Below are positions 4,723 to 64,000 of a stretch of 64,000 nucleotides of DNA, piece after piece (within the stretch, counting starts at the first letter, position 1; every line of letters begins with the position of its first letter). The notes below the pieces were generated by a model. That model was not told where the DNA came from. It ran no database searches and saw only the letters and a program-made list of their open reading frames with translations. The DNA is taken from the NCBI GenBank assembly GCA_029932605.1, contig JAOZPT010000001.1, positions 5,837-69,836 of the forward strand. Reading direction: 5' to 3'. The translations under genes and the position numbers were made by a program. The DNA is from Candidatus Zixiibacteriota bacterium (GTDB lineage Bacteria; Zixibacteria; MSB-5A5; UBA10806; 4484-95).

Positions 4723-4730
4723 AATTTTAC

Positions 4731-17994: not shown

Positions 17995-18070
17995 TGGTAG
18001 CGCTACGGGGAATCGAACCCCGGTTTGATGGCTGAGAACCACCCGTCCTAGGCCACTAGACGATAGCGCC
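17995..18070 (-). tRNA. tRNA-Glu (anticodon CUC), CCA encoded
   Basis: The reverse complement gives a 7-bp acceptor stem (GGCGCUA/UAGCGCU) with an encoded CCA end. The anticodon loop is UUCUCAG with U33 and A37, and the anticodon CUC reads GAG. A D-arm is present, and there is a standard T-arm CGGGG-TTCGATT-CCCCG. Confidence 0.85.
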
Positions 18071-28362: not shown

Positions 28363-28767
28363 TTATTTTGTTCCCACCAACAGCACGCCACCAAGTATAA
28401 GGACCAATCCGATCCATTTGGTCAAGGAAAAAGGCTCTTTGAACATAAAAAACGAGACCAGTATAATGGCTCCGTAGGCAAGACTTGTGACAATGGGGTA
28501 GGCTATCGAGATGTCAATTTTTGATAAAAGCACCATGTAACCCCCGACAGATGATACATAGCAAAAAAGTCCAACCAGCACAGCTATATTTGTGAATATA
28601 CGGGAAAAGTTCGTAAGGAAAGCTGTGGGCGTGATAGCACCCAATTGATTCATCCCGATTTTTAAAAAGACATGGCCGCAGATGTTAAAAGTAACAACGA
28701 AAAGCATTACCATATAGCGGGACATTTCAGGCTCCTTTAAAAGAAAAGATTCTAAATTTGTTAACAC
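28363..28767 (-). CDS. small EamA/SMR-like 4-TM protein (ArnE/ArnF-like candidate lipid-linked sugar flippase subunit)
   Basis: 120-134 aa depending on start (probable start MSRYMVML at 28725). Four hydrophobic helices with DMT/EamA-like spacing. Confidence 0.5.
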   Translation of the reverse strand: MLTNLESFLLKEPEMSRYMVMLFVVTFNICGHVFLKIGMNQLGAITPTAFLTNFSRIFTNIAVLVGLFCYVSSVGGYMVLLSKIDISIAYPIVTSLAYGAIILVSFFMFKEPFSLTKWIGLVLILGGVLLVGTK

Positions 28768-28858
28768 TCCATAGAGATATTTTGATTGGGCTGATAAGTG
28801 TATTATAATGTATTTTTACGATGATGAACATGATGCTTGTATATTGGTTTCATGTTTA

Positions 28859-29944: not shown

Positions 29945-30822
29945 ACTTTACCCTCAAACTGTAAAATAATTAAAACAGTGGTTATCCATAGTGCCACACA
30001 TATTAAAAGGGGTATGTCCGTAACAAGTAATTTTGTGGGATTGCCTCCCTGCTCTTTCTGGTGGATAAGATACAGATATCTGAATATCCCATAGAGCACA
30101 AACGGCACTGTTAGAACTAGATTACCTGTCCCTAACTTTTCCTTTACATCAGGTGAAAGGGTGTAAAATGTGTACGCCACCACGGTGGAGGCGGTAACCA
30201 CACTTATCATTTGGTCTAAAAAATATTTTGAATAATGTGCCAACGATTGCCGGTGCGAAACGGCTCCGTTTCCAAGAATCTCCAGTTCATGTCGTCTCTT
30301 GGAAAATCCTAAAAAGAGGGCTAAAAGAATTGTACATACTAAGAGCCAGGCCGAGATCGGCACTTCTATAGCGGCCGCTCCAGCAACGGCCCTTAGTACA
30401 AAACCCAGCGCCAAGCTCATGACGTCTATAATAACCACATTTTTCAAACCTATGTTGTAAGCTAGATTTAAAATGATATAGATACCAAGATAAATCATAA
30501 ATGTTAAACCCAGGGAATAACCGACCAGTATACTGAGAGCAAGTAGAAATAAGATGGTTATAGAAGCTGTTTTTACAGGGAGTTGGCCTGATGCTATCGG
30601 TCTGTATTTTTTGGTTGGATGATGCTGGTCTTTGCTGAGGTCTGTGATATCGTTGACATAATAAATTGCCGATACGGCGAAGCAGAATGCCAGAAACCCT
30701 TTTATAGCCAGCATCACCGAGATGGGTTCGCTATATTTTTTGGCAAATATTAAAGCTGCAAATACAACGAGGTTTTTAACCCAGTGATGAGGCCTAGCGG
30801 TTTTGATGATAGCACTAAGCAT
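29941..30822 (-). CDS. UbiA-family polyprenyl-phosphate 5-phosphoribosyltransferase-like (decaprenyl-phosphate phosphoribosyltransferase homolog)
   Basis: 293 aa, about 8 TM helices. N-terminal ARPHHWVKNLVVFAALIF and the Asp-rich motif YYVNDITDLSKDQHHPTKKYRPIASGQL parallel Rv3806c-type DPPR synthases (NDxxDxxxD ... HPTK.xRPIA). Confidence 0.7.
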   Translation of the reverse strand: MLSAIIKTARPHHWVKNLVVFAALIFAKKYSEPISVMLAIKGFLAFCFAVSAIYYVNDITDLSKDQHHPTKKYRPIASGQLPVKTASITILFLLALSILVGYSLGLTFMIYLGIYIILNLAYNIGLKNVVIIDVMSLALGFVLRAVAGAAAIEVPISAWLLVCTILLALFLGFSKRRHELEILGNGAVSHRQSLAHYSKYFLDQMISVVTASTVVAYTFYTLSPDVKEKLGTGNLVLTVPFVLYGIFRYLYLIHQKEQGGNPTKLLVTDIPLLICVALWITTVLIILQFEGKV

Positions 30823-30997
30823 AAACCGTTATTAATTAAAATTGGTTTTTATGTCAAGAAATAAAAGGCATGTCTGTTTCGATTGTAATGTAAACACCTT
30901 GTTTAAAATGCGGGTCGGGTTCCTTTAGAAACCAGATGTAGGAACTATGGATTATTGTAATTATTATCTGCTTAGTTTTCGGGCTGCTGTTTGTGGA

Positions 30998-31963
30998 TTA
31001 TAGTTCTTCTTTATCGTTGTTGGATAATGGATTTTTATCAAAATTTATTTCACGTGTTTTTCCGAAATTAATGGTGAATGAAAAGAAATGCGTCTGGCCT
31101 AAGTCCTGGCCGGGGTTGAATGCATAATCGATACGTCCCCACATGAACTTTAGCCCGGCACCAAAATTAACCATGTTAGATTGGTTATCGATACCGAGGT
31201 CACCAAGACCTGTTCTTAAGTTTAAGGCATTGCCCAGATTGTATTCCATTCCAGCGGAAAAGCTTGTTTCACCTGTAAATGCTACTTTTGTTCCCACCAT
31301 CATCGTTATAGGAATATTTATGGGGCTGAAAGAACTACCAACGGAGACCGAGGAGGGAAGCTTGTAGCTCTGCTCATCATATTTAACTTTGGGGCCAAGA
31401 TTATTAACAACGAAACCGAACGTAAATGTATTAATCAAATATTGAATTCCCATATCCAGAGCATAACCAGAGGCTTTAATATCTGCCAACTTTTCCTCTA
31501 TGTATTTCCCGCTTAGGCCAAGGTATAAAGCTCCTGACAATCTCCGGCTATAAGAGGCGATTGCCGTTAAACTATAAGGTCTGATACTTCCATATTGCTG
31601 GTCATACATATTGTAAGTATCGATCTGTCCCATGTGAAGATAAGAAGCTGATACTCCGATTGTTGAGTTGGTTTTCATGGGAATAGCTACAGCTATAAAT
31701 TCATATGATATATCCTGAAGCCATGAATTGTGCATAAAATTTAAGCCTGGTTGCTCAATTGAAGATAAACCAGCTGGATTGAAGTATGTTGAGGCTATGT
31801 CATTACTTATCGCCCAGCTTGCTCCACCCAAAGCAGCATGTCGAGCAGATACACTTATGTTTAGGAAATCTGCGGAGGTAATACCTCCAGCGGTAGCTGT
31901 ATTTATTAGGGTAATGCTCAGTATTATCGTAATAATAGAAATAAATTTCATTTGTTTTATCAT
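30998..31963 (-). CDS. PorV/PorQ-family outer-membrane beta-barrel protein (T9SS-associated)
   Basis: Start chosen at MIKQMKF (GGAGGG 7 nt upstream), giving a signal peptide. The ORF track starts at 32041. ARHAALGGASWAISNDIASTYFNPAGL is the hallmark N-terminal motif of PorV/PorQ-like proteins. It ends in an aromatic-rich beta-barrel C-terminus. Confidence 0.6.
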   Translation of the reverse strand: MIKQMKFISIITIILSITLINTATAGGITSADFLNISVSARHAALGGASWAISNDIASTYFNPAGLSSIEQPGLNFMHNSWLQDISYEFIAVAIPMKTNSTIGVSASYLHMGQIDTYNMYDQQYGSIRPYSLTAIASYSRRLSGALYLGLSGKYIEEKLADIKASGYALDMGIQYLINTFTFGFVVNNLGPKVKYDEQSYKLPSSVSVGSSFSPINIPITMMVGTKVAFTGETSFSAGMEYNLGNALNLRTGLGDLGIDNQSNMVNFGAGLKFMWGRIDYAFNPGQDLGQTHFFSFTINFGKTREINFDKNPLSNNDKEEL

Positions 31964-32371
31964 TAGAACACCCTCCTCTGATGATGGAATATGCAAATGA
32001 TATGCCATCAAGCAGACCCCCCTGGAGGTTGTTTGTAACATATTCTGTTACAACAAGATAAATGTTGCACCAAGATAACAGTTAGTCGGGGTGTTTGGGA
32101 TGTATTTGGTTTAATATTTTGGCAATAATTAAGAACTAATGGCATTTTTAAAGACACAATCCTTTTGAACCTTATAACTCATTGATACTTATGGTGTTCA
32201 AGCCCTTTATCAAAACGATTTTTACTTGCTTAATTGTTGAACAAATCCATCTTTTGAACATATTTTTTTACTATCATGGTTATTGGTTAAAGTCAATAGT
32301 TAATTTATAAAACTCCCCAATTTTACCGGAAATACAATTATAGAAATGTAAGCATGGCGGTGTGTAATCAT

Positions 32372-46662: not shown

Positions 46663-46690
46663 GTAGGGGCGTATTGCAATACGCCCCTAC
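46663..46690. promoter_or_regulatory. perfect 28-bp palindrome 9 nt upstream of the priA start
   Basis: GTAGGGGCGTATTG|CAATACGCCCCTAC. Candidate operator or hairpin. No clear U-tract follows. Confidence 0.4.
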
Positions 46691-52421: not shown

Positions 52422-53927
52422 GTGGTTATATCCCAAATAAAAAAAAAGGTCTTACTGGCAGCCATTTCTGCGCTACTTACAGTATTTGCCTTCCCTCCGT
52501 ATAAAACCGGTTTTTTTATTTATCTTTCTCCGCTTTTGTTACTATATGCTCTTGATGATATTTCATCTAAAACGTCTTTTGTTATTGGTTATATTTGGGG
52601 GCTTGTGTTCAATCTTGGCATTTTATACGGCGTATTCTGGGCGACCATTCCCGGAACATTTGGCATTCTTGCCATAATGTCTTTACTGCCGGCTATTATT
52701 TGCGCTATATACAAGTTCGTCTCCGCCAGGTCGAAAGTTTTAAGTTATATTATGTGGCCCTTGCTCTGGGTTGCCTGGGATTACCTTCGAACATTAACCC
52801 AGCTTAATTTCCCATGGGCGGATTACGGTTACACTCATAGTTATTATCTTGCCATGATTCAAATTGCTGAGATATTTGGCGTCTATGGTATTTCACTGAT
52901 GATACATATTGTCAATATCCTGTTATTTATATCGTTTAAATCAGATGTGATAGTTGTCAGGCGGCGGATTGCCTTTATAGTAGCGGTATTGTTGCCATGC
53001 GCATTTCTGGTTTATGGTTTATTCCGTTTGCCAGGTGAAGCGGAGGATGGCACATTGAAAGTCGCCATAGCCCAGGGTAATGTTACTCGTGACATAAAAT
53101 GGAAAAAGGGAGGAGTAGAGTACAGCCTTAACCTATTTTCCCAGATGACTCGCCAAGCAGCGGGTAAAGGAGCTGATTTGGTTATCTGGCCTGAAACTGC
53201 TATCCCGTTTTATTTATTGCATGAACCAAATAAATTAAACCGGGTAAAAAAGCTTGTGGATAGCGCTGATGTAAGATTGTTGACCGGCACTCCAGAGTAT
53301 TATAAGGTTGGAAAAAACGAGTATATTTATTTTAATGCTGCGGTTATGATTTCCCCCGCGGAAGATTCAATACCTGTTTATGAGAAGATGAAGCTGGTGC
53401 CGTTTAGCGAGCGGATACCTTTTTCCGAAAGGTTTAAGAAGCTGAGAGATATTCACCTTGGCCAGGCGGATTTTTCCCCGGGAAGGTATATGACGATTTT
53501 CTCATTTGACGATATTAAATATGCAACCGTGATTTGTTTTGAGTCAGTTTTTCCCGGTTATTGTGCTGAATTTTGCCGGAAGGGAGCCCAGTTTTTGGTG
53601 GTTATCACGAATGACATGTGGTTTGGTCCATCATCGCTTCCATACCAACATGCTCAGATGTCGATCTATCGAGCAATAGAAAATCGTCTACCTCTGGTTA
53701 GATGTGCTAACACTGGGATATCGATGTTCGTTGATCGATGGGGGAGAGTTTACAATCGCACAAAGATGTTTGAGAGAAAGCTGATAATGGGTACTATCAT
53801 ACCTGAACAATCTACGAGTATCTATAACCGCGTGGGTGATTTTTTGCCAATTTGTTGTATATTTGGTAGTATTCTGGTAATTGCCGTTGTGGTTTTTATG
53901 AAGGGGAGATATGATGGGAAATTTTAA
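52422..53927 (+). CDS. lnt: apolipoprotein N-acyltransferase
   Basis: 501 aa. N-terminal polytopic region plus C-terminal CN-hydrolase domain (VAIAQGNV ... WPETAIP ... CFESVF). Confidence 0.85.
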   Translation: MVISQIKKKVLLAAISALLTVFAFPPYKTGFFIYLSPLLLLYALDDISSKTSFVIGYIWGLVFNLGILYGVFWATIPGTFGILAIMSLLPAIICAIYKFVSARSKVLSYIMWPLLWVAWDYLRTLTQLNFPWADYGYTHSYYLAMIQIAEIFGVYGISLMIHIVNILLFISFKSDVIVVRRRIAFIVAVLLPCAFLVYGLFRLPGEAEDGTLKVAIAQGNVTRDIKWKKGGVEYSLNLFSQMTRQAAGKGADLVIWPETAIPFYLLHEPNKLNRVKKLVDSADVRLLTGTPEYYKVGKNEYIYFNAAVMISPAEDSIPVYEKMKLVPFSERIPFSERFKKLRDIHLGQADFSPGRYMTIFSFDDIKYATVICFESVFPGYCAEFCRKGAQFLVVITNDMWFGPSSLPYQHAQMSIYRAIENRLPLVRCANTGISMFVDRWGRVYNRTKMFERKLIMGTIIPEQSTSIYNRVGDFLPICCIFGSILVIAVVVFMKGRYDGKF

Positions 53928-56130
53928 GTATAATATGGTTTTGGCATTGATATTATTAAGTTTTTTATTAGGCTCTTCGCTTCTTTTTTCCGCTATTGGC
54001 GATTGGCAAAGTTTTACTTATTCTGATGATAGCAAAGATATCATAGCCGATAGTCAATTTGTATGGTGTGCTACTACCGGAGGTTTGATAAGGTGTGATA
54101 TCGAGACTGGGGAGCTTAAGAAGTTTCTGAACTCCGATGGTTTGGGTGATATTGAACTCTGGTCGGTTGAAATAGATACTGCTGGTGCCTTATTTGCCGG
54201 AGGCAGTAATGGGACGATTACTAAGATTGCAACCGATGGAGAGATAACCGTTTATGATTTTGAATACGACCCGGAGGTCCATTATGGCATTTTGGATATG
54301 GTCACTGATGGAGAAAAGTTATGGGTGGCTACCGAGGTCTGTGTGGCTGAATTTCTTATATATCACTATGGAGGAGAGTTCAGAGATAAAGCGGTTCAGC
54401 TTGGTGAAATTCCACGGGGCATTCCCGTTAATACTGTTCAGATTGTTGGTGATTATTTATGGGCTGGTACTGACAGCGGTGTAGCCTTTATCGACAAAGA
54501 TAACTATCTTCCTCAAGACCCGCAGAACTGGCGTTCCTATCGTCTTGATGAAAATGGTTTGACCGATGCCAGTATACATTCAATAACTTCTGTTGCGGAT
54601 ACCGTATTCATTGGCACAGGTGATGGTGTGTTTATGTTCGGGCAGGATTCAGTCTGGTATAATATTGGTCCCATTTCTGGGGTGATTTATGCTCTGGAAA
54701 ATTTCGGTGAAGAGCTCTATGCTGCAACCAACAACGGTATTTACCATCGTTACTTATCGGGTTGGGAGCTTTTACCCAATGATGGATTATTGAGTATCCA
54801 AGCTCGAGGGCTGGCTAAGGATAACCGAGGAGATATCTGGGCAGCTTTTCATCAGGGTGGGTTTTCTATGTATAACCAAACATCCTGGGATGTTTTTACT
54901 GTTCCGGGACCGGCGACAAACTTCATAATTGATATAGCCATCGACTCATCGAGAAATGTCTGGTTAGCTCATACCGTACCTGGTTATCTCTGTCTTGAGG
55001 GTGTTTCCAAATTTGATGGTTCAAATTGGTATATATATAATAGTTCAAATTCGGGAATCGGCAATAATGGAGCTGTTGCAGTTGAATACGATGTTTTCCA
55101 TGACCTTGTCTGGTTTGGTAGCTGGGGTGATGGTCTCTTCGGCTTTGACGGTGACACGCTTTGGGTAAATTACGATGAGACCAATAGTCCTTACAGGGGC
55201 TTGGTTGATGATACTTTTTATGTTGCCATCCCCGATATAGCTATTGATGAGCGAGGAAATATCTGGGGATTAAATCTCAAGGCGGCAAATCCTGAAGTTG
55301 TTATGGCCGTGTTTGACCCTGATGATTCTGTTTGGCTGGCTTATTATGAGAATCCTCAAGAGCAAATCCACAGGAATTATCAATTTGTAATGCATATAAA
55401 TGATAATAATGTTTATGTTGGCGGTGAGTATGTATACCGTCTGGATTTTGGATATAATTCTACTGATACTACTGATGACGAGTGGTTTGATGCGTTGGTT
55501 AAGATTGTCGATGTCTCGGCTTTGGCTTTTGATCAATCGGGGAGACTTTTTGTTGGTAGCGCCTCCGGTTTGATTTACTACGATTTCTTATTTGGCGATA
55601 CTTTTACGGTAGAGCTTCCCGATGGTTACCGTAGTTCGGTTAATACGATAGAAATCGATGGACTGGGTAACAAATGGATTGGCACCGATTCGGGGATTGT
55701 GGTATTAGCGAAAAATAATATAGCCTGGATAGATAGCTTCAAAACCTCAAATTCTTACCTTTTAGAAAATGAGGTTCAGGAGATAGAAATCGACAAAACG
55801 ACCGGCATTGTTTATGTTGGCACATCAAGGGGGCTTTCGATCTATGAATCGGGTTATGCTGCGGCATCGCCTGATTTGGAGGATATGGATGTTTATCCAA
55901 ATCCCGTAAAACCAGATGATAACAGAGTTAATTTTTTGCGTGTGCCTGCAGATGCCGAAATATTTATCTACACCACCGCCGGTGAATTAGTCAGGAGGTT
56001 TAAATATGAGAACACGAACTACTGGGATTTACTCAACGAGGGGAGACAAAAAGTTGCAGCCGGTATATACATTTTTTATGTTCGGTCTGGCCAACGATCG
56101 GGAACCGGCAAGATTGCTGTAATAAGATAA
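53911..56130 (+). CDS. two-component-regulator-propeller (Reg_prop) repeat beta-propeller protein with T9SS C-terminal sorting domain
   Basis: 739 aa. Signal peptide. Many W-x-G-T-x-x-G repeats (VWCATTGGLIRCD, LWAGTDSGVAFID, KWIGTDSGIVVL, VYVGTSRGLSIY). C-terminal YPNPV ... IFIYTTAGELV ... GIYIFYV matches the Por sorting tail. Confidence 0.7.
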   Translation: MMGNFKYNMVLALILLSFLLGSSLLFSAIGDWQSFTYSDDSKDIIADSQFVWCATTGGLIRCDIETGELKKFLNSDGLGDIELWSVEIDTAGALFAGGSNGTITKIATDGEITVYDFEYDPEVHYGILDMVTDGEKLWVATEVCVAEFLIYHYGGEFRDKAVQLGEIPRGIPVNTVQIVGDYLWAGTDSGVAFIDKDNYLPQDPQNWRSYRLDENGLTDASIHSITSVADTVFIGTGDGVFMFGQDSVWYNIGPISGVIYALENFGEELYAATNNGIYHRYLSGWELLPNDGLLSIQARGLAKDNRGDIWAAFHQGGFSMYNQTSWDVFTVPGPATNFIIDIAIDSSRNVWLAHTVPGYLCLEGVSKFDGSNWYIYNSSNSGIGNNGAVAVEYDVFHDLVWFGSWGDGLFGFDGDTLWVNYDETNSPYRGLVDDTFYVAIPDIAIDERGNIWGLNLKAANPEVVMAVFDPDDSVWLAYYENPQEQIHRNYQFVMHINDNNVYVGGEYVYRLDFGYNSTDTTDDEWFDALVKIVDVSALAFDQSGRLFVGSASGLIYYDFLFGDTFTVELPDGYRSSVNTIEIDGLGNKWIGTDSGIVVLAKNNIAWIDSFKTSNSYLLENEVQEIEIDKTTGIVYVGTSRGLSIYESGYAAASPDLEDMDVYPNPVKPDDNRVNFLRVPADAEIFIYTTAGELVRRFKYENTNYWDLLNEGRQKVAAGIYIFYVRSGQRSGTGKIAVIR

Positions 56131-56132
56131 TT

Positions 56133-57095
56133 TTGCCAGAGCTTGAGATAATAAAAGCGGATAAGACCCAATATCGAAACTGGGTTACTTCGGAACAACT
56201 TGATTTTTCAGGCTCGATATTTTATCACCCCGATTTTCTGGAGGTCGCCGCTGATATTTTAAACCTGCAGTTTAAACCGCTTATTTGCCTGTCATCGGGG
56301 AAGTTAACTGGTATCGTAAACCTCCTTATCGGCAACAGATTTAATGTCAAAACCGCTCTGATACCAAGGCTTTTCCAATATTATGGACCTGTGGCTATTG
56401 CCGGTAATACCGACGTCTTTGAATACGTAACAAAAACAATCGAGAATGAAATTGACACGGCTGTTTTTTCTATCAGGCCGGAGGAAAGTTTAAAGCCTGA
56501 TTTGTGCGGTTGGCATTTAAAAAATCGACTGACCTATTATCTTAGACCGGATACATTTGAAAATATGAAAAGCGATTGTTTTCCTGATGTAAAAAATAAA
56601 ATCAATAAGGCTGTAAAGGTTGGAATCAAGGTTGAGAACATCTCGCAATTTCCATATGAAATTTATCAGGCAAGCTTCAAAAGACAAAGAGCCACACCCC
56701 CTCTTGGAAAAGAGCTTTTGTCAGTTTGGGTGGAGCGTTTAACGAATTTGAATCTGGCCGCAACTTTTATCGCTGTCTTTGAGGGCAAACCAGTGTCCTT
56801 CAGGACCCAGCTTGTTTGGGGTGGTTATGCTTATGATTGGTTGGCGGGAGCTTATCCTGATTATAATCATCTCGGTGTAAATCAACTTCTAATTTTGAAA
56901 ATCGGTGAACAGTTTTATCGCAAAAGTGTTAAAAATTGGGACCTGCTTGGTGGAGATATTAAATCGATAGCTGGTTTTAAAAGATCTTTTGGCTCAATCC
57001 CCAAAACACATGTTCAGCTTGAAAAAAATTTCAGTATGAAAGGCAGAATTTACCGCTTGTTGATGAGGTTGAAAGCGGGTTTGAGACGTTTTTAG
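56133..57095 (+). CDS. FemAB-like / GNAT-fold acyl- or aminoacyl-transferase (EPS-locus type)
   Basis: 320 aa, TTG start. Size and layout are like FemAB-related proteins found next to CE4 deacetylases in exopolysaccharide loci (e.g. PEP-CTERM-associated subfamilies). Confidence 0.45.
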   Translation: MPELEIIKADKTQYRNWVTSEQLDFSGSIFYHPDFLEVAADILNLQFKPLICLSSGKLTGIVNLLIGNRFNVKTALIPRLFQYYGPVAIAGNTDVFEYVTKTIENEIDTAVFSIRPEESLKPDLCGWHLKNRLTYYLRPDTFENMKSDCFPDVKNKINKAVKVGIKVENISQFPYEIYQASFKRQRATPPLGKELLSVWVERLTNLNLAATFIAVFEGKPVSFRTQLVWGGYAYDWLAGAYPDYNHLGVNQLLILKIGEQFYRKSVKNWDLLGGDIKSIAGFKRSFGSIPKTHVQLEKNFSMKGRIYRLLMRLKAGLRRF

Positions 57096-57099
57096 TTTT

Positions 57100-58476
57100 A
57101 TGTTTAAGCTGACCTGCAGTTTTTATTGCCCACCTCGGGCTGAAAAGATAGCAATATACATGCTCAATTTGATTGCTTCAGTAACTGGCATTCGTTTTCG
57201 GCGAGTTAACGGTCAGGCTGATATCGTTTATGGTGGGGTATCTAATAGTAATTCTTTTTATATACCGTATAGGGAAACGGATAAAAGATTCGTCCATGGT
57301 GATATCGACAGCTGGTATCTACACGAGGATGGTGAGCTTAGGATTGCGTTGCCGAAGAGTATTAAAAAGATAAATATCCATAATAATGAAATTGATTTTG
57401 ATATTTTTTCGGTGATGTTCAATTTTTTACAGACAGCACTTTCTGTTCATAACAAACATTTAGAATTTTTTCGGAAGTTCAAAAATGACGACATATTTAT
57501 TCCGCCTGTTTTTGATGATTACATCAGTTATTTTTTGCAGGTTTTAAAATCATGCCAGAAACTTCCCAATGATTTTAAGAGAAAATCACCCTGGCCAGAG
57601 GAGGCCGATTTTGCTCTGGGTATAAGCCATGATATCGATATTTTTAAAAGAAAGATTCCCGGAAGCGTGGCCATGTTGATGAAATCCTTGTTCTCAAATG
57701 AAGTCCCTGGAGGAGTAAGGGGTTCATTGAAAGGCCTTTTTAAATCTGTATCAACAGCTTTGACAGGCGAGACAAATCCCTATAGTGCAATTGAAAAATG
57801 GTTTGATATTGAGAGTGAAAATACATTTTTTATTCATGCCGGGGTTAGGAGGTCGGTTGAGGACCCGACCTATGCTCCTGAGGATATCCGGAGAGTTCTG
57901 GTGGGATTAGGTATGGACGGTATTGAGATCGGGTTACACAACAGCATTGGTTCCTGGACAGATAAAGAAGATTTAAAAGAGCAAAAAGATAGGCTGATGA
58001 ATATTTTCAATACAGAGATAGAGGGGATCCGCCCTCACTATCTTGATTGTCGGTATCCGGATTATTGGAGAAACGCTGAGTCATTTAAGTATTCGTCATC
58101 GGTTGGTTCGGATGCCATTGCTGGTTTTACCTGCGGTATCAATTTTCCATTTTTTGGTTTCGATTTTGATACTGCCAATGTTTTGGATATTCTTGAGATA
58201 CCCATCGGATTGATGGATTGTGCCCTTTTTTCGATATGTGAGAAAACTTCAAAAGAGAAGACCATAGACAAGCTTATAGATATCTGTGTTTCAAACCATG
58301 GGTTGCTGGTTTTAGACTGGCATACAAGGACTGTGTATGAGCCTGATTTTCCCGGCTGGTTTGATACTTATTGTATGATACTTAAAAAAGCTAAATCGGC
58401 AGGTGCGTTTATCGCCCCACTGGGCAAGATAAGCAGCTATTGGAAAAACCATTGCACATCGTTTTTTTTATCTTAA
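57100..58476 (+). CDS. polysaccharide deacetylase (CE4/NodB-homology) with N-terminal extra domain
   Basis: 458 aa. The C-terminal half carries NodB-like motifs: ALGISHDID (Asp pair), GIEIGLHNSIGSW (H-x-x-x-H metal site) and IRPHYL (RxPY). Confidence 0.55.
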   Translation: MFKLTCSFYCPPRAEKIAIYMLNLIASVTGIRFRRVNGQADIVYGGVSNSNSFYIPYRETDKRFVHGDIDSWYLHEDGELRIALPKSIKKINIHNNEIDFDIFSVMFNFLQTALSVHNKHLEFFRKFKNDDIFIPPVFDDYISYFLQVLKSCQKLPNDFKRKSPWPEEADFALGISHDIDIFKRKIPGSVAMLMKSLFSNEVPGGVRGSLKGLFKSVSTALTGETNPYSAIEKWFDIESENTFFIHAGVRRSVEDPTYAPEDIRRVLVGLGMDGIEIGLHNSIGSWTDKEDLKEQKDRLMNIFNTEIEGIRPHYLDCRYPDYWRNAESFKYSSSVGSDAIAGFTCGINFPFFGFDFDTANVLDILEIPIGLMDCALFSICEKTSKEKTIDKLIDICVSNHGLLVLDWHTRTVYEPDFPGWFDTYCMILKKAKSAGAFIAPLGKISSYWKNHCTSFFLS

Positions 58477-59555
58477 ATCCATTTGATTATGATTCGCGGG
58501 CGCAGTTGATTTGCCATGACATACTATCCTCAGGCTGGCGTCTTGATATAATCGCTACAATCGGTGGCAAGATTCCATCGTTTGGGAATGCTGATATCCA
58601 TCGATTGCCCCAGCCGGTCTGGCCGACAAGGAAAAGGCGGTTTATTGAATACAACATTAGGGCGACCTCATTGGCAAAGAGATTAAGAGCTGACATTTAC
58701 CATGCGGTTGACCTTGATACCCTGTGGGCGGCGGTTAATGCGGCAAGGGCTGTGGGGGGAAAAGTGGTTTATGAATCGCGTGAGTTATATACCGAGCTTA
58801 TGTCCTTATCTGGAAGGCCTATCGTTAGAGCGTTCTGGAGCATTCTTGAGAAAAAGTTAATCCGGAAGGTCGATGTTGTGGTGACGGTAAATCAGGCTAT
58901 CGCCGAGGAGATGACGAAACGTTATAGAATAAATCCACCGGAGATTGTAATGAATGTGGCTCGATCAGGGGAATCCATCGAACCAATTGACCTTCGTAAA
59001 GAGTTTAACCTTCAAAGTAAATTCGTATTGATTTTCCAGGGAATTTTACGGCCGGGGCAGGGAATACTCAGAGCTATCGAGTTGATAGTATATCTTCCTG
59101 AGGTTAGCCTTGTGTTTATAGGGGATGGTCCGTTAAGGGATACTATCGAAAAAAGGGCAAATGATCTTGGTATCAGTAACCGTGTGCGGATTGCTGGAAA
59201 GATTGAACCCGGTCGGTTGGCACATTATACCAGTGGTGCCGATGCCGGTTTGATTTTGATAGAACCGGTAGCATTGAACAATCGTCTGGCTCTACCTCAA
59301 AAGCTTTTCCAGTATATCTCTGCTGAAACGCCGCCCATAGTCTCCGACCTTCCCATGTTGCGGCAGATAGTGCAGGAAGATAAATTGGGCTTGGTGTTGA
59401 AAGATGGTTTACCTAAAGAAAGTGCCGAGGCCGTACGTGATTTTTTGAACAACGGGCTTGAAATGGCTATCGGCCAGTGCCGTATAGCAAAAAGGAAGTA
59501 TTGCTGGGAAATCGAGGGCAAGAAGTTTATTAACTTGTACAGGAATCTCGTTTGA
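58440..59555 (+). CDS. family-4 glycosyltransferase (GT4, GT-B fold)
   Basis: 371 aa. C-terminal EPVALNNRLALPQKLFQYISAETPPIVSD matches the GT4 EX7E-type region. TTG start overlaps the previous gene. Confidence 0.7.
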   Translation: MEKPLHIVFFILNPFDYDSRAQLICHDILSSGWRLDIIATIGGKIPSFGNADIHRLPQPVWPTRKRRFIEYNIRATSLAKRLRADIYHAVDLDTLWAAVNAARAVGGKVVYESRELYTELMSLSGRPIVRAFWSILEKKLIRKVDVVVTVNQAIAEEMTKRYRINPPEIVMNVARSGESIEPIDLRKEFNLQSKFVLIFQGILRPGQGILRAIELIVYLPEVSLVFIGDGPLRDTIEKRANDLGISNRVRIAGKIEPGRLAHYTSGADAGLILIEPVALNNRLALPQKLFQYISAETPPIVSDLPMLRQIVQEDKLGLVLKDGLPKESAEAVRDFLNNGLEMAIGQCRIAKRKYCWEIEGKKFINLYRNLV

Positions 59556-60481
59556 TGATTGAAACGAGTATAATAATACCCGTTAGAAACCAGAAAAAGT
59601 CGTTGCTTATGACATTAAAAACTCTTAAGCGGCAGATTAGAAATCTGAAGATTTTCGAGGTCATAATTTGTGATGATGGTTCCACTGATGGTACAGAAGA
59701 GGAGGTAAAAAAGCTTCGTTATCCGATATTTTTAAAATATTTCAGGAATGCCCCACCGCTGGGCAGAGCGGTTAATCGCAATTTGGGATATGAACGTTCA
59801 AGCGGACAAAACCTTATATTTCTCGATGGTGATATGGTGCCGACCGAAGGATATATCGAGGCTATGCTTACAGCCACATCCACTGATATAGTAAAACTTG
59901 GTAATGTTAAACACCCACCTGCAGAACAAACAGGTCGTTTGGAAAAATACCTTTATTCACGAGGCCGTTTTGGCTCTCGATATAAAAACACCCCTCTTCC
60001 AGGAAGGCTATTTACTAGCAATAACTTCTTTATAAGCAAACGAAATTTTACTAGGGTTGGTGGATTTGACCCGAATTTCAAAAGCTGGGGTGGTGAGGAT
60101 ATCGATTTTGGCTTGAGGCTTGAAGATTTAGAAATTCCCATAAGAATCGAGCCGGCAGCTTTAACTTACCATTACCATAAACGCACTGTTGAATCGTTGA
60201 TGAAGGATTTTTACAGTTTTGGAAAAAACTCTTTCGAATACCTGATTAAAAAACATCCCGCCTTTTTAGAACAATTGCCAGCTCATTTCCTTGGATTAAA
60301 AAATGCTCACCTGATATATAAATTAATCTCTAAGCTTACCGTTAACAAAACCGCTCTTGGCATTGTTAGCAAAACCGTATCGTCCTTTGAAAAATTTAAC
60401 TGGCCAGATTTCATATTTGATTATTTATTCTGGGGAAACCTTGTATTGGGTTATAGAAAAAGTGAGAAGTCGATTGGATAA
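59555..60481 (+). CDS. family-2 glycosyltransferase (GT2, GT-A fold)
   Basis: SIIIPVRN ... ICDDGSTDGT ... FLDGDMVP (DxD). The ATG overlaps the GT4 stop (TGATG). Confidence 0.8.
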   Translation: MIETSIIIPVRNQKKSLLMTLKTLKRQIRNLKIFEVIICDDGSTDGTEEEVKKLRYPIFLKYFRNAPPLGRAVNRNLGYERSSGQNLIFLDGDMVPTEGYIEAMLTATSTDIVKLGNVKHPPAEQTGRLEKYLYSRGRFGSRYKNTPLPGRLFTSNNFFISKRNFTRVGGFDPNFKSWGGEDIDFGLRLEDLEIPIRIEPAALTYHYHKRTVESLMKDFYSFGKNSFEYLIKKHPAFLEQLPAHFLGLKNAHLIYKLISKLTVNKTALGIVSKTVSSFEKFNWPDFIFDYLFWGNLVLGYRKSEKSIG

Positions 60482-62009
60482 AAAAGCGATTGTTTTAATC
60501 GTTTTGGTAATGGTAATAGCTGTGGTTTACTGTCTTCTGTTGTTTGGTGGATATTCGGGTACAAGCGATACCTGTGATTACGGAGGGCTGGCATTAAATC
60601 TTATTTCAGGAAAGGGATTTACTGTCAACCATGTTTTACCATTGTCGCTGGTTTTTATTCCCAATGTTCCTCAGCCGAACTGTACCTGGGCACCCGGGTA
60701 TCCAGTTTTTCTGGCAGGGGTGTTTACGGTTTTAGGCGTTTCGGATTATTCAATTTTAGGAGCAAACCTGTTTTTGTTTCTGATGGTGATTATCTCGGGT
60801 TATTTTTTAACTAAAAAATATGTTAATTATGAGGCCGCTCTGATTTTCGTGCTTTTTATGGGTTTGAATCAGTACTCTTATTATACAATCCTTTATGGTT
60901 CGCCTGAGATGCTGGCGGCCGCTTTGTTAACTTTTTCACTTCTTTTGTGGGGTGATAATTACAGACGGGTGATCATAGCGGGTCTTTTTTACGGACTGGC
61001 GGTTCTTACACGTTACCAGATGGTAATTTTGTTGCCGGTATATCTCGTGTTTTTTAAAAAGATAAACAAAAAATACATCGTTTTTATTGCGGTAGTTGTT
61101 ATTGTATGTGCTGGCTGGCTGGTGCGTAATATTGTTCTTTTTGGTGACCCCTTGTTTTGCCTGCAACGTTATGGGGAGTTTACCAAGGGGATGGGTATCG
61201 GGGATGATTTTTACTACACGTATCGTTCACTTGAACCTGCCGGGTTTTTTTATGTGATATCTACATATCCGTTGCTGTTTTTGCGCAAACTGGCGGTTGG
61301 TGTAACGTATTTTTTAAGAACGCTTCCAGAACACCTTAATTCTTTTGGCCTGTTTCTTGTTTTCTGGGCGATAATTTATCGGGAAAAGTTAGCTACTTTG
61401 AATTCTAATAAATCTCGAATGGGAGTTAATCTCTGGCGACCGGCAGTTAGGTTTTTGATTATAGGTGTTGCATTAACTGTTATTATATGCCTGTTCGATG
61501 GCCAGCATCATCGGCACCTTTACATATTCAACCCTCTTATGATTATGATATCATCCGCTGGTTTTAACGATTTCGCTTTGAGAACGGGTATTATGAAAAA
61601 AAGGTTCTACTATCTCGTTTTGCTTTTATTTTTCTTGATACCCTTACAATTTCCCCAGCAGGAGGTTTGGTTGAGAGATCTCAAGGTTAGGATTAAAGCC
61701 GAGATTCCTGTTTATAGAGAGGTGGCTATAAATTTATCCTGCTATGGCCCGGTTGCTTCTGATGCCAGCGATGCCTTGTGGTGGTATAGCGGTCTGAATA
61801 CCGTCTGGATGCCAACTAACTATGAGACGTTTGTGAAAGTCGATTCGCTGATAGACATAAAGGCTGTTTATTTTCAAAAGGACGATTGGCTGAAAAAACT
61901 TGACAAAGAGGAAAGACGAAAGTTTATGATTTCCTTTCCAGAAATAAGGCGTTTCAATGATGGCTCTGTATTATATATCAAGAGCTTGGTTGACGGAAGA
62001 TTAGAGTGA
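60462..62009 (+). CDS. polytopic membrane protein, GT-C-like glycosyltransferase candidate (PMT_2/ArnT-like)
   Basis: About 515 aa with 11 or more TM helices. Size and organisation are like GT39/GT83-type lipid-linked sugar transferases. The start is uncertain: a GTG is possible at 60462, and the ORF track extends to 60357, overlapping the GT2 gene. Confidence 0.4.
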   Translation: MRSRLDKKAIVLIVLVMVIAVVYCLLLFGGYSGTSDTCDYGGLALNLISGKGFTVNHVLPLSLVFIPNVPQPNCTWAPGYPVFLAGVFTVLGVSDYSILGANLFLFLMVIISGYFLTKKYVNYEAALIFVLFMGLNQYSYYTILYGSPEMLAAALLTFSLLLWGDNYRRVIIAGLFYGLAVLTRYQMVILLPVYLVFFKKINKKYIVFIAVVVIVCAGWLVRNIVLFGDPLFCLQRYGEFTKGMGIGDDFYYTYRSLEPAGFFYVISTYPLLFLRKLAVGVTYFLRTLPEHLNSFGLFLVFWAIIYREKLATLNSNKSRMGVNLWRPAVRFLIIGVALTVIICLFDGQHHRHLYIFNPLMIMISSAGFNDFALRTGIMKKRFYYLVLLLFFLIPLQFPQQEVWLRDLKVRIKAEIPVYREVAINLSCYGPVASDASDALWWYSGLNTVWMPTNYETFVKVDSLIDIKAVYFQKDDWLKKLDKEERRKFMISFPEIRRFNDGSVLYIKSLVDGRLE

Positions 62010-62157
62010 GAGCAATTATAGAAGATAAGTTTCGGAAACGGCCGAGAAAAAACCTGAAAGAATTGTTTATATTTAGTTATCTGCTTATAGCTTTTGGAGC
62101 CTATTTCCTTTCGTTGGTACTTTCACGTATAGAAAGGATAAAAGCGTTATTTGGCTT

Positions 62158-64000
62158 ATGAAGTTTATTATTGATTTACTTTTTGGCATTCTATTTAGCA
62201 TGTCGTTAGGGGGGTTAGGGGTTGTTTTCTTCAGGCGGATTTTAAAGACCGAGATCGATTTCTTCAGGGGATTTTTTACTGGATGTGGGATAGCGGTAGT
62301 AGTGTTATTTGTCGGTGGTCTTTTGGGCTTATTCGGCAGGACTTTCTTTTTTATATTTATAATTTTAATTTTTATTTTTGCCATACCGGGGAGGAGAAAG
62401 TTTTTCACTTACAAGTTTATTGTTAACCGGAAATACATTTTGCCTTTGATATTGTTAGCATTGGTTTTGGTTATCACCGGCTTATCATCTCTTTCTCCGC
62501 CTATCAAGAACGATACTTTGTATTACCATCTGGGATTGCCGAAACTATGGTCGATTGATGGTTATTTCAATTTTTACCCGACCATAGTTTTTTCCGCAAC
62601 CGCCTTGAACTCGGAGCTTTTGTTGACACCTATTCTGTCAGTGGTTTCTCCTGAGGCGGCTCAGTTCTTTGTATTTTTAGTTGGTTTGATGGTCATTTTT
62701 CTTCTTGGCGATGGTTTTTCCCGCTTTACCGGTGGTTCCAAGGCGCTGGCTGTTTTATCGCTTTCCGTGGTTCCCCTTTTCATAAGTGGCATGGCAGATG
62801 CTAAAAACGATTATCTTGCCGCTGGTTTTTCCCTTATGTCAGCACTGTTTTATTTTGATTATCTGAAAAGATATAATCCTGGATTTATTTTGTTGGCTGG
62901 CATCTTTGCTGGCCTGGCAGCGGGGACCAAGACCAATGCTTTAATCTTCGTCATGGCTATGTTCATCGTGATTGTCCTTTCACGTCATCGATTAAAGGAT
63001 ATTATTCTTTTTCTGGTTGGAACATTGGTCTTCGGTTTCCCCTGGTATCTCAAAGCATACATCGAAACCGGAAACCCGTTTTTCCCTTTCTATGACAACA
63101 TATTTCATTCTCCATATTGGCGCGAGATTTTCGACGGTTTCAATAGAGTCACATTGCCCGAGGTTGAACATAAAAGCATCTTGAACTTTATAACTTCTCC
63201 GTTCAGGTTGGTTTATTTTCCAGATGTTTTCAGGGGGAGATTGGGGCCCCTGTTATTTATGCTTTTACCTTTATTATTATTTATCAGGAAAATACCGGGA
63301 GTGGTTTTCAAAGCCCTGTTTATTTCAGCTGCATTTTATATCCTGTGGTATCTGGTTTCCGCCAATGCCCGATACATGATGCCTATTGTACCTCTATTAG
63401 CCCTGTTAGCTGCATATGTCATGGACAGGTTTATAAGCATAAGCAGATCGTCTGGCTTAGTTATCATTTGTACTTTAACCCTGTTATTGGCAGTAAACGG
63501 CGTTCAGGTATTCCGTGATGGATTTAGTCGAGCAAAGGCTGCTGTTGGGATTATTGAATACGATGAGTTTTTGCACAAGATAGAAGTGTTAGATCCGAAT
63601 GACGTTTCATCTTCAACAAGATGTCTCGCCATACCTTATTATGATATATGGCAATTTATCAACGTCACCGCTGGGGATGATGCTGTTGTAGGAATATTGT
63701 GCTCAAACTGGAACCGGGCTGATGGTTTTTACCTCGATCGTCACTTTCTTCTTTTAAACCCCACTGAACAGGTTGAGGTTGATTTTTCTGGACGTAGATA
63801 TAACCTAATATCGTCGTTAGTAAAGCATAAAGTGAATTATGTTTTGATAGACAATCTTGTAGTTGAGGAGTTTTCTGCCGGGTCAACTTTTACTGAGGCA
63901 CCGGGCTTTAAAATTTTTAAGCAGGGGGTTACAGATTTCGTTGACATTGTAAAAGAAAACGGTCAATTGGTTTATTTAACTGACCGCTTCGAGTTATACA
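62158..64000 (+). CDS. second polytopic GT-C-like membrane protein; CDS runs off the window end
   Basis: ATG at 62158, open frame to position 64000 (614 or more codons), which is why it is absent from the ORF track. Many TM helices (MKFIIDLLFGILFSMSLGGLGVV ... ) then a large soluble C-terminal region. Confidence 0.4.
   Translation, partial: MKFIIDLLFGILFSMSLGGLGVVFFRRILKTEIDFFRGFFTGCGIAVVVLFVGGLLGLFGRTFFFIFIILIFIFAIPGRRKFFTYKFIVNRKYILPLILLALVLVITGLSSLSPPIKNDTLYYHLGLPKLWSIDGYFNFYPTIVFSATALNSELLLTPILSVVSPEAAQFFVFLVGLMVIFLLGDGFSRFTGGSKALAVLSLSVVPLFISGMADAKNDYLAAGFSLMSALFYFDYLKRYNPGFILLAGIFAGLAAGTKTNALIFVMAMFIVIVLSRHRLKDIILFLVGTLVFGFPWYLKAYIETGNPFFPFYDNIFHSPYWREIFDGFNRVTLPEVEHKSILNFITSPFRLVYFPDVFRGRLGPLLFMLLPLLLFIRKIPGVVFKALFISAAFYILWYLVSANARYMMPIVPLLALLAAYVMDRFISISRSSGLVIICTLTLLLAVNGVQVFRDGFSRAKAAVGIIEYDEFLHKIEVLDPNDVSSSTRCLAIPYYDIWQFINVTAGDDAVVGILCSNWNRADGFYLDRHFLLLNPTEQVEVDFSGRRYNLISSLVKHKVNYVLIDNLVVEEFSAGSTFTEAPGFKIFKQGVTDFVDIVKENGQLVYLTDRFELY

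Follow-up and report, generated by a model that had tools for sequence, protein, structure and literature searches.

A candidate locus for type IX cargo attachment and anchor-glycan synthesis in Zixibacteria bacterium 4484_95

To our knowledge, the tethering of type IX-secreted proteins by way of a linker sugar and a glycolipid is known only from oral Bacteroidota. In P. gingivalis, the Wbp/Vim pathway's linking sugar bears an amino acid and is both made and installed through the vimA-vimE-vimF operon (PMC7468200), with VimF being the proposed transferase for it (PMC13086638). There, PorZ binds A-LPS and hands it to PorU (PMC8545088), and for PEP-CTERM-type loci the making of an analogous amino-acid-modified sugar has already been proposed (PMC7468200). 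The locus considered here is in a window of 64,000 nt (the whole stretch of DNA analysed; forward-strand positions 5,837-69,836 of contig JAOZPT010000001.1, assembly GCA_029932605.1) from Zixibacteria bacterium 4484_95. With a probability of roughly 70%, we judge it to be a locus for T9SS cargo attachment and anchor-glycan synthesis, the best reading being a clustered, GT-C-containing variant of the known system. Read so, it would be a kit, conserved across Zixibacteria, for the linker sugar and glycolipid that tether T9SS cargo.

The eight ORFs of the array noted in a preliminary description are all present on the forward strand and tightly packed. At its upstream edge lnt, for apolipoprotein N-acyltransferase (52422..53927; TIGR00546 at 328 bits, cut-off 133), is taken as a neighbour and not as a member of the system; its stop codon overlaps the start of the gene for a 739-aa PorZ homologue (53911..56130), the shared stretch being 17 nt. 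After 2 nt there follows a TTG-initiated gene for a VimA-like tandem-GNAT transferase of FemXAB fold (56133..57095; 320 aa) and, after a further 4 nt, one for a two-domain VimE-like deacetylase (57100..58476; 458 aa). A GT4 glycosyltransferase gene in the vimF position (58452..59555) overlaps the latter by 25-37 nt, its TTG start being at 58452 or 58440, and meets the gene for a soluble, EpsD/MftF-like GT2 glycosyltransferase (59555..60481; start 59552 or 59555) in the TGATG junction reported earlier, with a one-base overlap. The ORF for a polytopic PMT_2-type protein of GT39/GT83-like character, GT-C1 (60462..62009), opens at 60357; its likelier starts, 60462 or 60474, give an overlap of 8-20 nt with the GT2 gene. 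Beyond a gap of 148 nt comes GT-C2 (62158..64000), also polytopic and PMT_2-type, with a soluble C-terminal domain of ~180 aa. That this last gene runs off the window is borne out: only 44 nt are missing, and from the 99.8%-identical contig L004, and from P0100, the complete product is of 628 aa, with an end that corresponds to window position 64044. The same-strand run exceeds the six consecutive genes counted earlier, beginning at priA (46700) and taking in an HD gene, purM, gpmI and lnt. The notion of a compact glycan-assembly module stands, and so does every family assignment made earlier: FemAB-like, CE4, GT4 and GT2 proteins, a pair of GT-C-like membrane proteins, and a T9SS-tailed propeller.

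The propeller protein had been viewed as an unrelated ‘sensor’ neighbour, a view that its PorZ homology and the gene at the far end of the locus displace. It has a signal peptide, with one N-terminal hydrophobic segment predicted in a hydropathy scan, propeller repeats (Reg_prop, 25.9 bits against a cut-off of 20.4) and a type-A T9SS C-terminal domain (TIGR04183, 27.1 bits against 23). Its alignment to NCBIfam T9SS_PorZ (NF052228; E 2e-67) is full-length, residues 13-739 falling on positions 7-757 of the 757 in the model, at 228 bits and so under the cut-off of 260, and P. gingivalis PorZ (5M11) is its top PDB sequence match (E 2e-17). Just past the window end, as seen in the 99.8%-identical contig, a convergent gene 3′ of GT-C2 encodes a PorU-like C25 peptidase of 811 aa, with propeptide, C25 peptidase, Ig-like domain and T9SS tail. 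PorU sortase is its top NCBIfam match, at 82-85 bits against a cut-off of 420 and with only part of the 1,095-position model covered; across 8 genomes, neither His465-Gly466 nor Cys517 varies. With a PorZ homologue as its propeller protein and a PorU-like peptidase at its end, the locus most likely serves the T9SS as its sorting system. Because the PorZ, VimE and PorU scores are all under equivalog cut-offs, the proteins in question are, on sequence, best regarded as distant relatives and not as confirmed orthologues.

The VimA-like protein matches Pfam Acetyltransf_6 at 39.1 bits (cut-off 22), and a Foldseek comparison of its AF2 model (pLDDT 94.1) with the PDB places the aminoacyl-tRNA-dependent Sba18/Sbb17, FemX and FemA on top, with tandem-GNAT proteins and MprF next (TM 0.65-0.71; E 1e-15 to 1e-12); Sba18/Sbb17 act on an amino sugar. 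Bacteroidales/Bacteroidota GNAT proteins are among its closest non-Zixibacteria relatives, for those whose names were looked up, and in the Bacteroidales relative whose neighbourhood was fetched the gene is directly upstream of a DUF7033 VimE-like gene. The VimE-like protein combines an N-terminal DUF7033-like domain with a CE4/NodB barrel, is homologous over its full length to DUF7033+CE4 VimE-like proteins, and has VimE as its only NCBIfam family match (46 bits, cut-off 440). Its CE4 fold is confirmed and its Asp/His/Arg motifs are invariant; an earlier reservation, that the FemAB-like and CE4 genes might lack catalytic residues, is not borne out. The GT4 protein matches Glycos_transf_1 at 58.7 bits and Glyco_transf_4 at 47 bits, and its gene is found in all Zixibacteria loci compared. 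For the GT2 protein the corresponding figures are 82.6 bits for Glycos_transf_2 and 126 bits for NCBIfam EpsD, the latter under the EpsD cut-off, and a hydropathy scan finds no TM-like segment.

As to the two membrane proteins, a transporter identity had been raised as a point that would tell against their assignment; both match PMT_2 and no transporter family. In the family search GT-C1 matched PMT_2 alone, at 26.4-26.6 bits against a cut-off of 26.1, with its orthologues at 39.9 and 48.5 bits. GT-C2 reaches 39.1 bits against the same cut-off, eleven TM-like segments are predicted for it by hydropathy scan, and Asp119 is invariant within the motif PPxxxD-LYYHLGLPK; its homologues, which bear PMT_2, PMT and DUF8201, go under the names GT39 or ArnT-like. 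Profile searches detected no solved structural relative of the GT-C proteins.

The order lnt-porZ-vimA-vimE-GT4-GT2-(variable GT slot)-GT-C-PorU is shared by at least 11 genomes of Zixibacteria, between which protein identity is 32-86%. Wherever the fetched contig of a Zixibacteria locus extends far enough, lnt is found directly upstream of porZ. The strain variability typical of surface-glycan loci, which the preliminary description would have led one to expect, is not what is encountered: the core is conserved phylum-wide, with variation confined to a single internal glycosyltransferase slot. The slot is occupied by GT-C1 in the window, in near-identical contigs and in L001, L015, L016 and L024, with GT-C1 being absent in seven other Zixibacteria loci reaching that point, and additional GT2/GT4 genes are found there in L013, L015 and L024. 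In the divergent relative L024, GT-C2 and the PorU-like gene are absent at the locus.

Other genes of the window are also relevant. On the reverse strand is a gene for a PorV/PorQ-family outer-membrane beta-barrel (30998..32041; NF033709 at 181 bits, cut-off 90; PorQ 126 and PorV 90 bits; Pfam PorV 48 bits), and a gene for CTD-bearing T9SS cargo is present as well. Directly downstream of the PorV/Q gene, and on the same strand, is a candidate lipid-linked pentose supply module (28363..30822), confirming the UbiA/EamA module described earlier at 28-31 kb. Its members are a UbiA-type decaprenyl-phosphate phosphoribosyltransferase-like enzyme (29941-30822; NF008977, 302 bits against 234), a DUF362 protein (28859-29944; 75 bits) and a 134-aa small membrane protein with TMEM234, EamA and SMR matches (28363-28767), and might conceivably feed the GT-C genes. 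A gene for a Wzx-like flippase is 45 kb from the locus.

What the sequences show directly is which genes are present, the families and folds of their products, the conserved motifs, and a gene order that is itself conserved. From homology and gene neighbourhood we infer a sequence of events, the identity of sugar and amino acid, the role of the GT-C enzymes and the link to the T9SS all being of this nature. In the cytoplasm, the VimE-like CE4 enzyme would de-N-acetylate an amino sugar in nucleotide-sugar (or lipid-linked) form, the substrate of the P. gingivalis counterpart being UDP-2,3-diacetamido-glucuronate. The VimA-like FemX-fold enzyme would then use an amino acid, most probably drawn from aminoacyl-tRNA, to acylate the amine so exposed, yielding a linking sugar with a free alpha-amine. 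Through the GT4 enzyme in the vimF position this sugar would be moved onto the lipid-linked glycan, with the GT2 enzyme attaching a further sugar at the cytoplasmic face, both contributing to a lipid-linked oligosaccharide that contains it. After flipping, one or two PMT_2-type GT-C enzymes may take sugars from polyprenyl-phosphate donors and add them at the periplasmic face, or else link glycan and lipid carrier to each other. At the cell surface, PorZ would bind the finished glycolipid and present it to the downstream-encoded PorU-like C25 peptidase acting as sortase, which would cut off the C-terminal sorting domain of the cargo and attach the new C-terminus to the linking sugar's amine. 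Neither a Wbp-pathway gene nor an initiating phosphoglycosyl transferase, Wzy or WaaL turned up in the locus.

A different type of explanation would have the locus make a common cell-envelope polysaccharide, such as O-antigen, capsule or S-layer glycan, that happens to contain an aminoacylated amino sugar, with the PorZ and PorU-like genes being beside it merely through a frozen syntenic block. VimA/VimE-like pairs are indeed known from ordinary polysaccharide loci that have no nearby T9SS gene, vimA/vimE homologues in O-antigen-type clusters of Pseudomonas, Aeromonas and Vibrio included (PMC7468200), and VimE-like or VimA/VimE-like genes occur in generic polysaccharide loci that lack porZ and have Wzx flippases, methyltransferases or sulfotransferases (L020, L022 and L025). 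Moreover, synteny is no weaker for the flanking housekeeping genes, priA to lnt on one side and mraZ on the other, than for the genes of the locus, so that functional linkage is not proven by conserved order alone. However, porZ, vimA, vimE, the vimF-type GT4 gene and porU, which serve one process and are dispersed in P. gingivalis, are contiguous here, with only 2 nt separating porZ and vimA and with the genes from vimA through GT-C1 either overlapping or no more than 4 nt apart, and the locus has no Wzx, Wzy or chain-length regulator. We consider this explanation unlikely, if deserving of attention. Distinctly more improbable is an Arn-like pathway, in which the GT2 enzyme would make a polyprenyl-phosphate amino sugar that is deacylated on the lipid by an ArnD-like CE4 enzyme, modified by the FemAB-like protein and moved by an ArnT-like GT-C enzyme to lipid A or the LPS core, altering surface charge. 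The co-occurrence of GT2, CE4 and GT-C enzymes fits it, as does the ‘ArnT-like’ name given to GT-C2 homologues by some sources. Yet the GT2 protein has no membrane segment and matches the ArnC model at just 17.5 bits compared with 126 for EpsD, neither GT-C protein matches an ArnT model, ArnA/ArnB-type genes are absent, the one sequence-family match of the deacetylase is to VimE and not to ArnD, and PorZ and the PorU-like gene are left unexplained.

The exopolysaccharide/exosortase-type framing of the preliminary description, in which the FemAB-like protein and deacetylase would serve an exosortase next to an unrelated T9SS propeller, has turned out to be scarcely credible. Its resemblance to PEP-CTERM/exosortase loci holds at the superfamily level: a FemAB-like/deacetylase/GT4 trio is beside a protein-sorting system, loci with FemAB-like protein, deacetylase and exosortase are described from Nitrosomonas and others (PMC7468200), the top NCBIfam match of the GT4 protein is a PEP-CTERM-associated glycosyltransferase (46 bits against a cut-off of 442), and FemAB-like relatives weakly match TIGR03019 (3 of 26 family members, best E 2e-6; 26-63 bits in more distant relatives), as has been noted for VimA itself (PMC7468200). 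The window proteins themselves, however, match neither TIGR03019 nor the deacetylase model TIGR03006, and the adjacent sorting components, PorZ and PorU-like, are of the T9SS. No exosortase is present among window ORFs of 120 aa or more, in agreement with the earlier statement for the window, nor in the flanking DNA that was fetched for the syntenic Zixibacteria loci, which extends up to 10 kb on either side.

Returning to attachment of T9SS cargo to an anchor glycan, the closest known systems share some features with the locus and differ in others. The UbiA-type enzyme, above its NCBIfam cut-off, and the small SMR/EamA-like protein recall the logic of mycobacterial UbiA with Emb/Aft arabinosyltransferases, but the candidate supply module is 30 kb off and not adjacent to the GT-C genes. 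The polytopic character, PMT_2 core, invariant Asp in the first loop and soluble C-terminal domain parallel GT-C enzymes of the PMT_2/GT39/GT83 type such as ArnT and protein O-mannosyltransferases, with the difference that no solved relative of the two GT-C proteins is detectable by sequence. To the attachment complex PorU-PorV-PorQ-PorZ (PMC8545088, PMC5562754, PMC12365241) correspond a PorZ homologue with two propellers and a CTD, a C25-family peptidase with a retained-type CTD, and the PorV/PorQ-family barrel gene of the window, although all matches to that complex are under equivalog cut-offs, and here the genes are clustered with ones for glycan synthesis. The Wbp/Vim pathway of P. gingivalis and Tannerella forsythia (PMC7468200, PMC13086638, PMC3663753) shares the FemAB-like transferase, the DUF7033+CE4 deacetylase and the GT4 enzyme, in the same order, and presumably the chemistry of deacetylating an amino sugar, adding an amino acid and transferring the product to the glycolipid acceptor of T9SS cargo. 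The sequences are nevertheless very distant, as the VimE score illustrates, no Wbp genes are seen near the locus, and the GT2 and PMT_2-type GT-C proteins are without counterpart among the 11 listed A-LPS-specific genes of P. gingivalis. Whereas in that organism, a member of the Bacteroidota, the vim genes are part of a bcp-recA-vim-aroG operon, in Zixibacteria their counterparts are clustered together with porZ and the PorU-like gene.

The run of genes that closes the window is, with a probability that we put at roughly 0.7, a locus for attachment of type IX secretion system (T9SS) cargo and for its anchor glycan. The protein families had all been called correctly in the preliminary description, and the open reading frames it listed are all present, all on the + strand: a propeller-protein gene, porZ (53911-56130, 739 aa), a FemAB-like or vimA-like gene (56133-57095, 320 aa, TTG start), a CE4 or vimE-like gene (57100-58476, 458 aa), GT4 and GT2 genes ending at 59555 and 60481, and two genes for membrane proteins, GT-C1, ending at 62009 and for which gene callers take a later start (60462 or 60474), and GT-C2, which starts at 62158 and continues past the window end. 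The junctions are as tight as was described, including the TGATG one-base overlap of GT4 and GT2. Only 2 nt separate porZ from the vimA-like gene, which stands directly upstream of the vimE-like gene with a gap of 4 nt; the vimE-like stop is overlapped by GT4, and GT2 overlaps GT-C1 by 8-20 nt, given the gene-caller starts.

The co-directional run starts well upstream, at priA (46700), and takes in an HD-domain gene, purM, gpmI and lnt before it reaches the locus. From 46 to 64 kb the sole strong terminator-like stem is a 12-bp GC-rich hairpin (46663-46690, +) between a TPR gene and priA, which is likely to mark the 5′ boundary of the run; promoter and terminator scans gave the same counts inside the locus as in shuffled controls. 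The stop of lnt (52422-53927) overlaps the porZ start (53911), the two genes sharing 17 nt, and lnt is directly 5′ of porZ wherever a fetched Zixibacteria contig extends that far. The overlap could reflect translational coupling or merely frozen gene order.

The 739-aa propeller protein is, by its sequence, a full-length PorZ homologue, though one below the equivalog threshold. On NCBIfam NF052228 (T9SS PorZ; described there as ‘type IX secretion system anionic LPS delivery protein’) it scores 228.4 bits (E 1.8e-67) against a curated cut-off of 260 bits, with residues 13-739 aligned to positions 7-757 of the 757-position model. The architecture is that of PorZ: a signal peptide, with an N-terminal hydrophobic segment at residues 11-29, beta-propeller repeats (Reg_prop 25.9, cut-off 20.4) and a type-A C-terminal sorting domain (TIGR04183, residues 661-736, 27.1, cut-off 23), so that the earlier view of a propeller with a T9SS tail holds. 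That the propeller is a sensor does not, for while the Reg_prop name suggests a hybrid two-component sensor, the best PDB match is Porphyromonas gingivalis PorZ (5M11, residues 366-725, E 2e-17), which outscores HTCS sensor structures by far, and a sensor histidine-kinase reading was rejected. PorU, PorV, PorQ and PorZ form an attachment complex in which PorZ binds A-LPS and hands it on to PorU, the sortase (PMC8545088).

The FemAB-like protein is, judging from its modelled fold and family match, a putative VimA-like transferase. It matches Pfam Acetyltransf_6 (39.1, cut-off 22), no NCBIfam VimA model was matched by the 320-aa protein, and its AF2 model (pLDDT 94.1) has the tandem-GNAT FemX fold; the FemAB-like call is thus borne out by both family and fold. 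The best structural matches of the model are aminoacyl-tRNA-dependent transferases, namely Sba18/Sbb17, FemX and FemA, with tandem-GNAT proteins and MprF lower in the list. The top matches, Sba18/Sbb17, acylate an amino sugar, streptothrisamine. Among 1.8 billion representatives, a profile search brought up 89 relatives with E-values of 1e-30 or lower. Ten of the nearest outside Zixibacteria were looked up by name; two of these fall in clusters labelled Bacteroidales or Bacteroidota GNAT proteins, and the gene for one of the two, in a Bacteroidales contig, is followed directly by a DUF7033 VimE-like gene.

For the 458-aa CE4 protein there is no Pfam match, and its sole NCBIfam match is VimE NF053580, at 45.9 bits (E 2.8e-12) over residues 239-414 only, far from the equivalog cut-off of 440 bits; DUF7033 proteins of Bacteroidota and Cloacimonadota likewise reach just 128-162 bits on that model. 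Profile-profile alignment with hhalign against the DUF7033 VimE-like proteins of Cloacimonadota and Bacteroidota gave a probability of 100 and an E-value of 8e-45, and since that alignment spans the whole length, the N-terminal DUF7033-type domain is common to both. The protein accordingly has two domains, this one and a CE4/NodB barrel, in an AlphaFold model (pLDDT 91.6) built from a 40-sequence alignment. Loss of catalytic residues, which would have told against a CE4 enzyme, is not seen: D178 and D180 (SHDIDI), H280 (EIxLH), R311-P-H313-Y and W407-H408 are invariant in the 40 sequences, with R-P-H-Y aligned, at a weak E-value, to the RxPY motif of insect chitin deacetylase 5ZNS. The protein is best described as a predicted VimE-like deacetylase. 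PDB sequence and profile searches with the VimA-like and VimE-like proteins and GT-C2 gave no significant match, the fold searches alone being informative.

The gene immediately after vimE-like, in the position of VimF in the vim operon (order in PMC3663753), encodes a GT4/GT-B protein that matches Glycos_transf_1 and Glyco_transf_4. The GT2 product is predicted to be a soluble EpsD/MftF-like enzyme. With the two membrane proteins, the concern had been that they might score as transporters; no transporter family was matched, PMT_2 being the sole family, without competitor, at its gathering score, for their orthologues too, and the transporter possibility was set aside. GT-C1 is barely above the cut-off (26.6 bits, cut-off 26.1), its orthologues reaching 39.9 and 48.5 bits, and GT-C2 scores 39.1 and 40.8 bits. 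The two are distant paralogues only. GT-C2 has about 11 TM-like segments followed by a C-terminal stretch of ~180 aa in which no membrane segment is predicted, and its Asp119 is invariant in 35 homologues; more distant homologues, which go by the names GT39 or ArnT-like, have PMT PF02366 and DUF8201 as well. No solved relative of GT-C2 came to light in a PDB sequence search, and ‘GT-C’ is here a putative label that follows from family membership.

What lies past the window end is seen in an ENA scaffold, L004, that is 99.8% identical to the window over 17.9 kb. It supplies the rest of the last gene, the downstream remainder of which had been sought, and gives GT-C2 as 628 aa, so that the window falls short of it by only 44 nt. 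Next in the scaffold is a convergent gene (L004 17887-20322, -) for a C25 peptidase of 811 aa that ends in a T9SS C-terminal domain, and then mraZ and the cell-division cluster. The peptidase scores 166 bits on Peptidase_C25, 34 bits on Propeptide_C25 and 27.7 bits on Por_Secre_tail, and H465-G466 and C517 are invariant in 8 genomes. Its best NCBIfam match is PorU NF033707, at 82-85 bits (cut-off 420), and it could be a gingipain-like cargo protease instead of PorU. At 100% identity, the VimA-like protein corresponds to B6D58_02325 of ‘candidate division Zixibacteria bacterium 4484_95’, which comes from the same study as the ENA scaffold, and a 99% variant of the VimE-like product is present in the protein collection searched. 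In an NCBI contig of the same organism (NATP01000019.1, GCA_002085375.1), indels relative to the window and to ENA scaffolds split gpmI and the PorU-like gene and cut the VimE-like protein to 444 aa, the probable cause being faulty assembly and not pseudogene formation.

A scan of one genome per species with a narrow alignment (A2), which reached mostly Zixibacteria, returned 14 loci, 10 of them with the full syntenic cluster and in Zixibacteria-type genomes. The order lnt-porZ-vimA-vimE-GT4-GT2-(slot)-GT-C2-PorU-mraZ is common to 11 or more distinct genomes, with protein identities of 32-86%, the slot being occupied by GT-C1 or by extra GT2/GT4 genes, or empty. Variability of the kind typical of surface-glycan loci, which had been anticipated, is accordingly confined to one glycosyltransferase slot. 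Extra GT2 and/or GT4 genes occupy it in three related loci (L013 12923-15307, L015 6868-8175 and L024 10351-13064), the last of these being from a divergent relative in which GT-C2 and the PorU-like gene are not at the locus site. In the sample examined, clustering of porZ with vim-type genes is a Zixibacteria feature. No porZ adjoins the VimE-like genes of Chryseolinea, of Cloacimonetes or of two Bacteroidales contigs, and one Bacteroidales contig considered as a vim operon turned out to be a generic polysaccharide locus.

Synteny is just as well kept in the housekeeping flanks, and a conserved gene order is therefore not by itself evidence of linkage. One rival, which we consider unlikely, is a generic locus for envelope glycan that adjoins PorZ and PorU by accident. 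The argument for linkage comes from five gene types of one known process standing side by side. An Arn-like pathway for a lipid-linked amino sugar is very improbable. A deacetylase and a PMT_2-type protein are what might bring it to mind, but the resemblance to ArnD is at the level of fold only, no ArnT model was matched, and the GT2, with 0 TM segments, scores 17.5 bits on the ArnC model; on the GT2 and ArnT results, membership of the ArnC/ArnD/ArnT pathway (L-Ara4N modification of lipid A) was rejected.

Least credible of all is the exosortase model, which was the framing of the preliminary description, with FemAB-like and deacetylase genes as a PEP-CTERM-type pair in an exopolysaccharide locus. 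Some relatives of the VimA-like protein do match TIGR03019 weakly, below threshold, in agreement with the remark that VimA resembles the PEP-CTERM FemAB family (PMC7468200). However, the window's own FemAB-like and deacetylase proteins gave no match to TIGR03019 and TIGR03006 at E up to 0.01-1, and no exosortase was found among the window ORFs scanned, as had been noted, nor among the called genes of related loci. The reading as T9SS cargo attachment and anchor glycan is preferred.

A further T9SS component is encoded at a distance from the locus. A PorV/PorQ-family outer-membrane barrel gene (30998-32041, -; 181 bits, cut-off 90) is one of four co-directional genes (28363-32041, -), the others being for a UbiA-type decaprenyl-phosphate phosphoribosyltransferase-like enzyme (302 bits, NCBIfam cut-off 234), a DUF362 protein and a 134-aa SMR/EamA/TMEM234-like small membrane protein (28363-28767, -). 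What had been described as a UbiA/EamA module stands as to the UbiA-type gene and the presence of an EamA/SMR-like protein; the 361-aa ORF beside UbiA, considered as EamA, is DUF362, and it is the 134-aa ORF that is EamA/SMR-like. A T9SS attachment-complex gene would thus adjoin one for a likely polyprenyl-phosphate-pentose synthase and one for a possible flippase, an arrangement that points to polyprenyl-phosphate pentose as a possible donor for the GT-C enzymes. A metagenome scan with the PorV/Q protein returned the same organism alone. The module is flanked by a deoxyhypusine/homospermidine-synthase-like gene (26199-27176, +) and one for a nickel-pincer-nucleotide-dependent ornithine cyclodeaminase (32372-33652, -; 510 bits), placing polyamine and ornithine metabolism close by.

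Taken to its extreme, Zixibacteria would have a self-contained T9SS cassette for sortase and anchor (porZ, vimA, vimE, GT4, GT2, GT-C and porU), in which GT-C enzymes, using a polyprenyl-phosphate pentose, complete the anchor glycan in the periplasm, the donor being made by the UbiA-type enzyme and flipped by the SMR/EamA-like protein, both encoded beside the PorV/Q gene. This full scheme is speculative and rather improbable. Were it true, the assembly route would be unlike that by Wzy/WaaL which has been proposed for the A-LPS of P. gingivalis and might explain the unassigned pentose of the P. gingivalis linker, and amino-acid-sugar transpeptidation would be ancestral to the Fibrobacteres-Chlorobi-Bacteroidetes (FCB) group and no speciality of Bacteroidota.

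Elsewhere in the window, a probable T9SS cargo protein of 438 aa, encoded at 12911-14227 (-), combines LVIVD repeats with a type-A sorting domain at its C-terminus. A second glycan module (8814-12107, +) has genes for a Wzx-like MOP flippase (Polysacc_synt, 216 bits), a sugar-phosphate nucleotidyltransferase and a TarF-like CDP-glycerol glycerophosphotransferase (143 bits); it resembles teichoic-acid-type polyol-phosphate chemistry, unusual for a presumed diderm. A TPP riboswitch (4634-4738, +; Rfam RF00059, 65 bits, gathering 54) is directly 5′ of the gene for an 840-aa TonB-dependent receptor (4796-7318), which suggests thiamine-regulated outer-membrane uptake. There is also a tRNA-Glu gene (anticodon CTC) at 17995-18070 (-).

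Among the full texts searched, none names Zixibacteria together with T9SS. As T9SS is already accepted in the wider FCB superphylum, the locus is informative as a variant but not surprising. Tethering of T9SS cargo has been worked out just in a few oral Bacteroidota, in which the genes lie apart and the linking sugar is not the same in every species; VimA and VimE are lacking in Prevotella intermedia (PMC11969387). PorZ, Vim-type enzymes, additional glycosyltransferases and a PorU-like protein in one locus that the sampled Zixibacteria conserve would give independent comparative-genomic support for their functional link, and would extend amino-acid-sugar anchoring chemistry past Bacteroidota. 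New candidate enzymes of anchor assembly would follow, namely GT2, the two GT-C proteins and possibly the polyprenyl-phosphate-pentose supply module, and the gene set is compact enough that it could be moved to a tractable host.

In the pathway known from Bacteroidota, a Wbp-pathway product, UDP-2,3-diacetamido-2,3-dideoxy-glucuronate, is proposed to be deacetylated by VimE, serine (or, by Tannerella forsythia VimA, glycine) is added by VimA, the resulting linking sugar is proposed to be transferred by VimF, a GT4 enzyme that is PGN_1054 in P. gingivalis (PMC7468200, PMC13086638), and the C-terminus of the cargo is then joined by PorU to the amino acid of that sugar. No Wbp-type gene (WbpA/B/E/D) was recognised among the window ORFs scanned. 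Enzymes of the three Vim types recur in the window, in the order of the vim operon, with PorZ on one side and, beyond the window end, the PorU-like peptidase on the other. The components are homologous to those of the Bacteroidota system, yet here they are clustered, in a host that is not one of the Bacteroidota, and GT-C enzymes stand with them.
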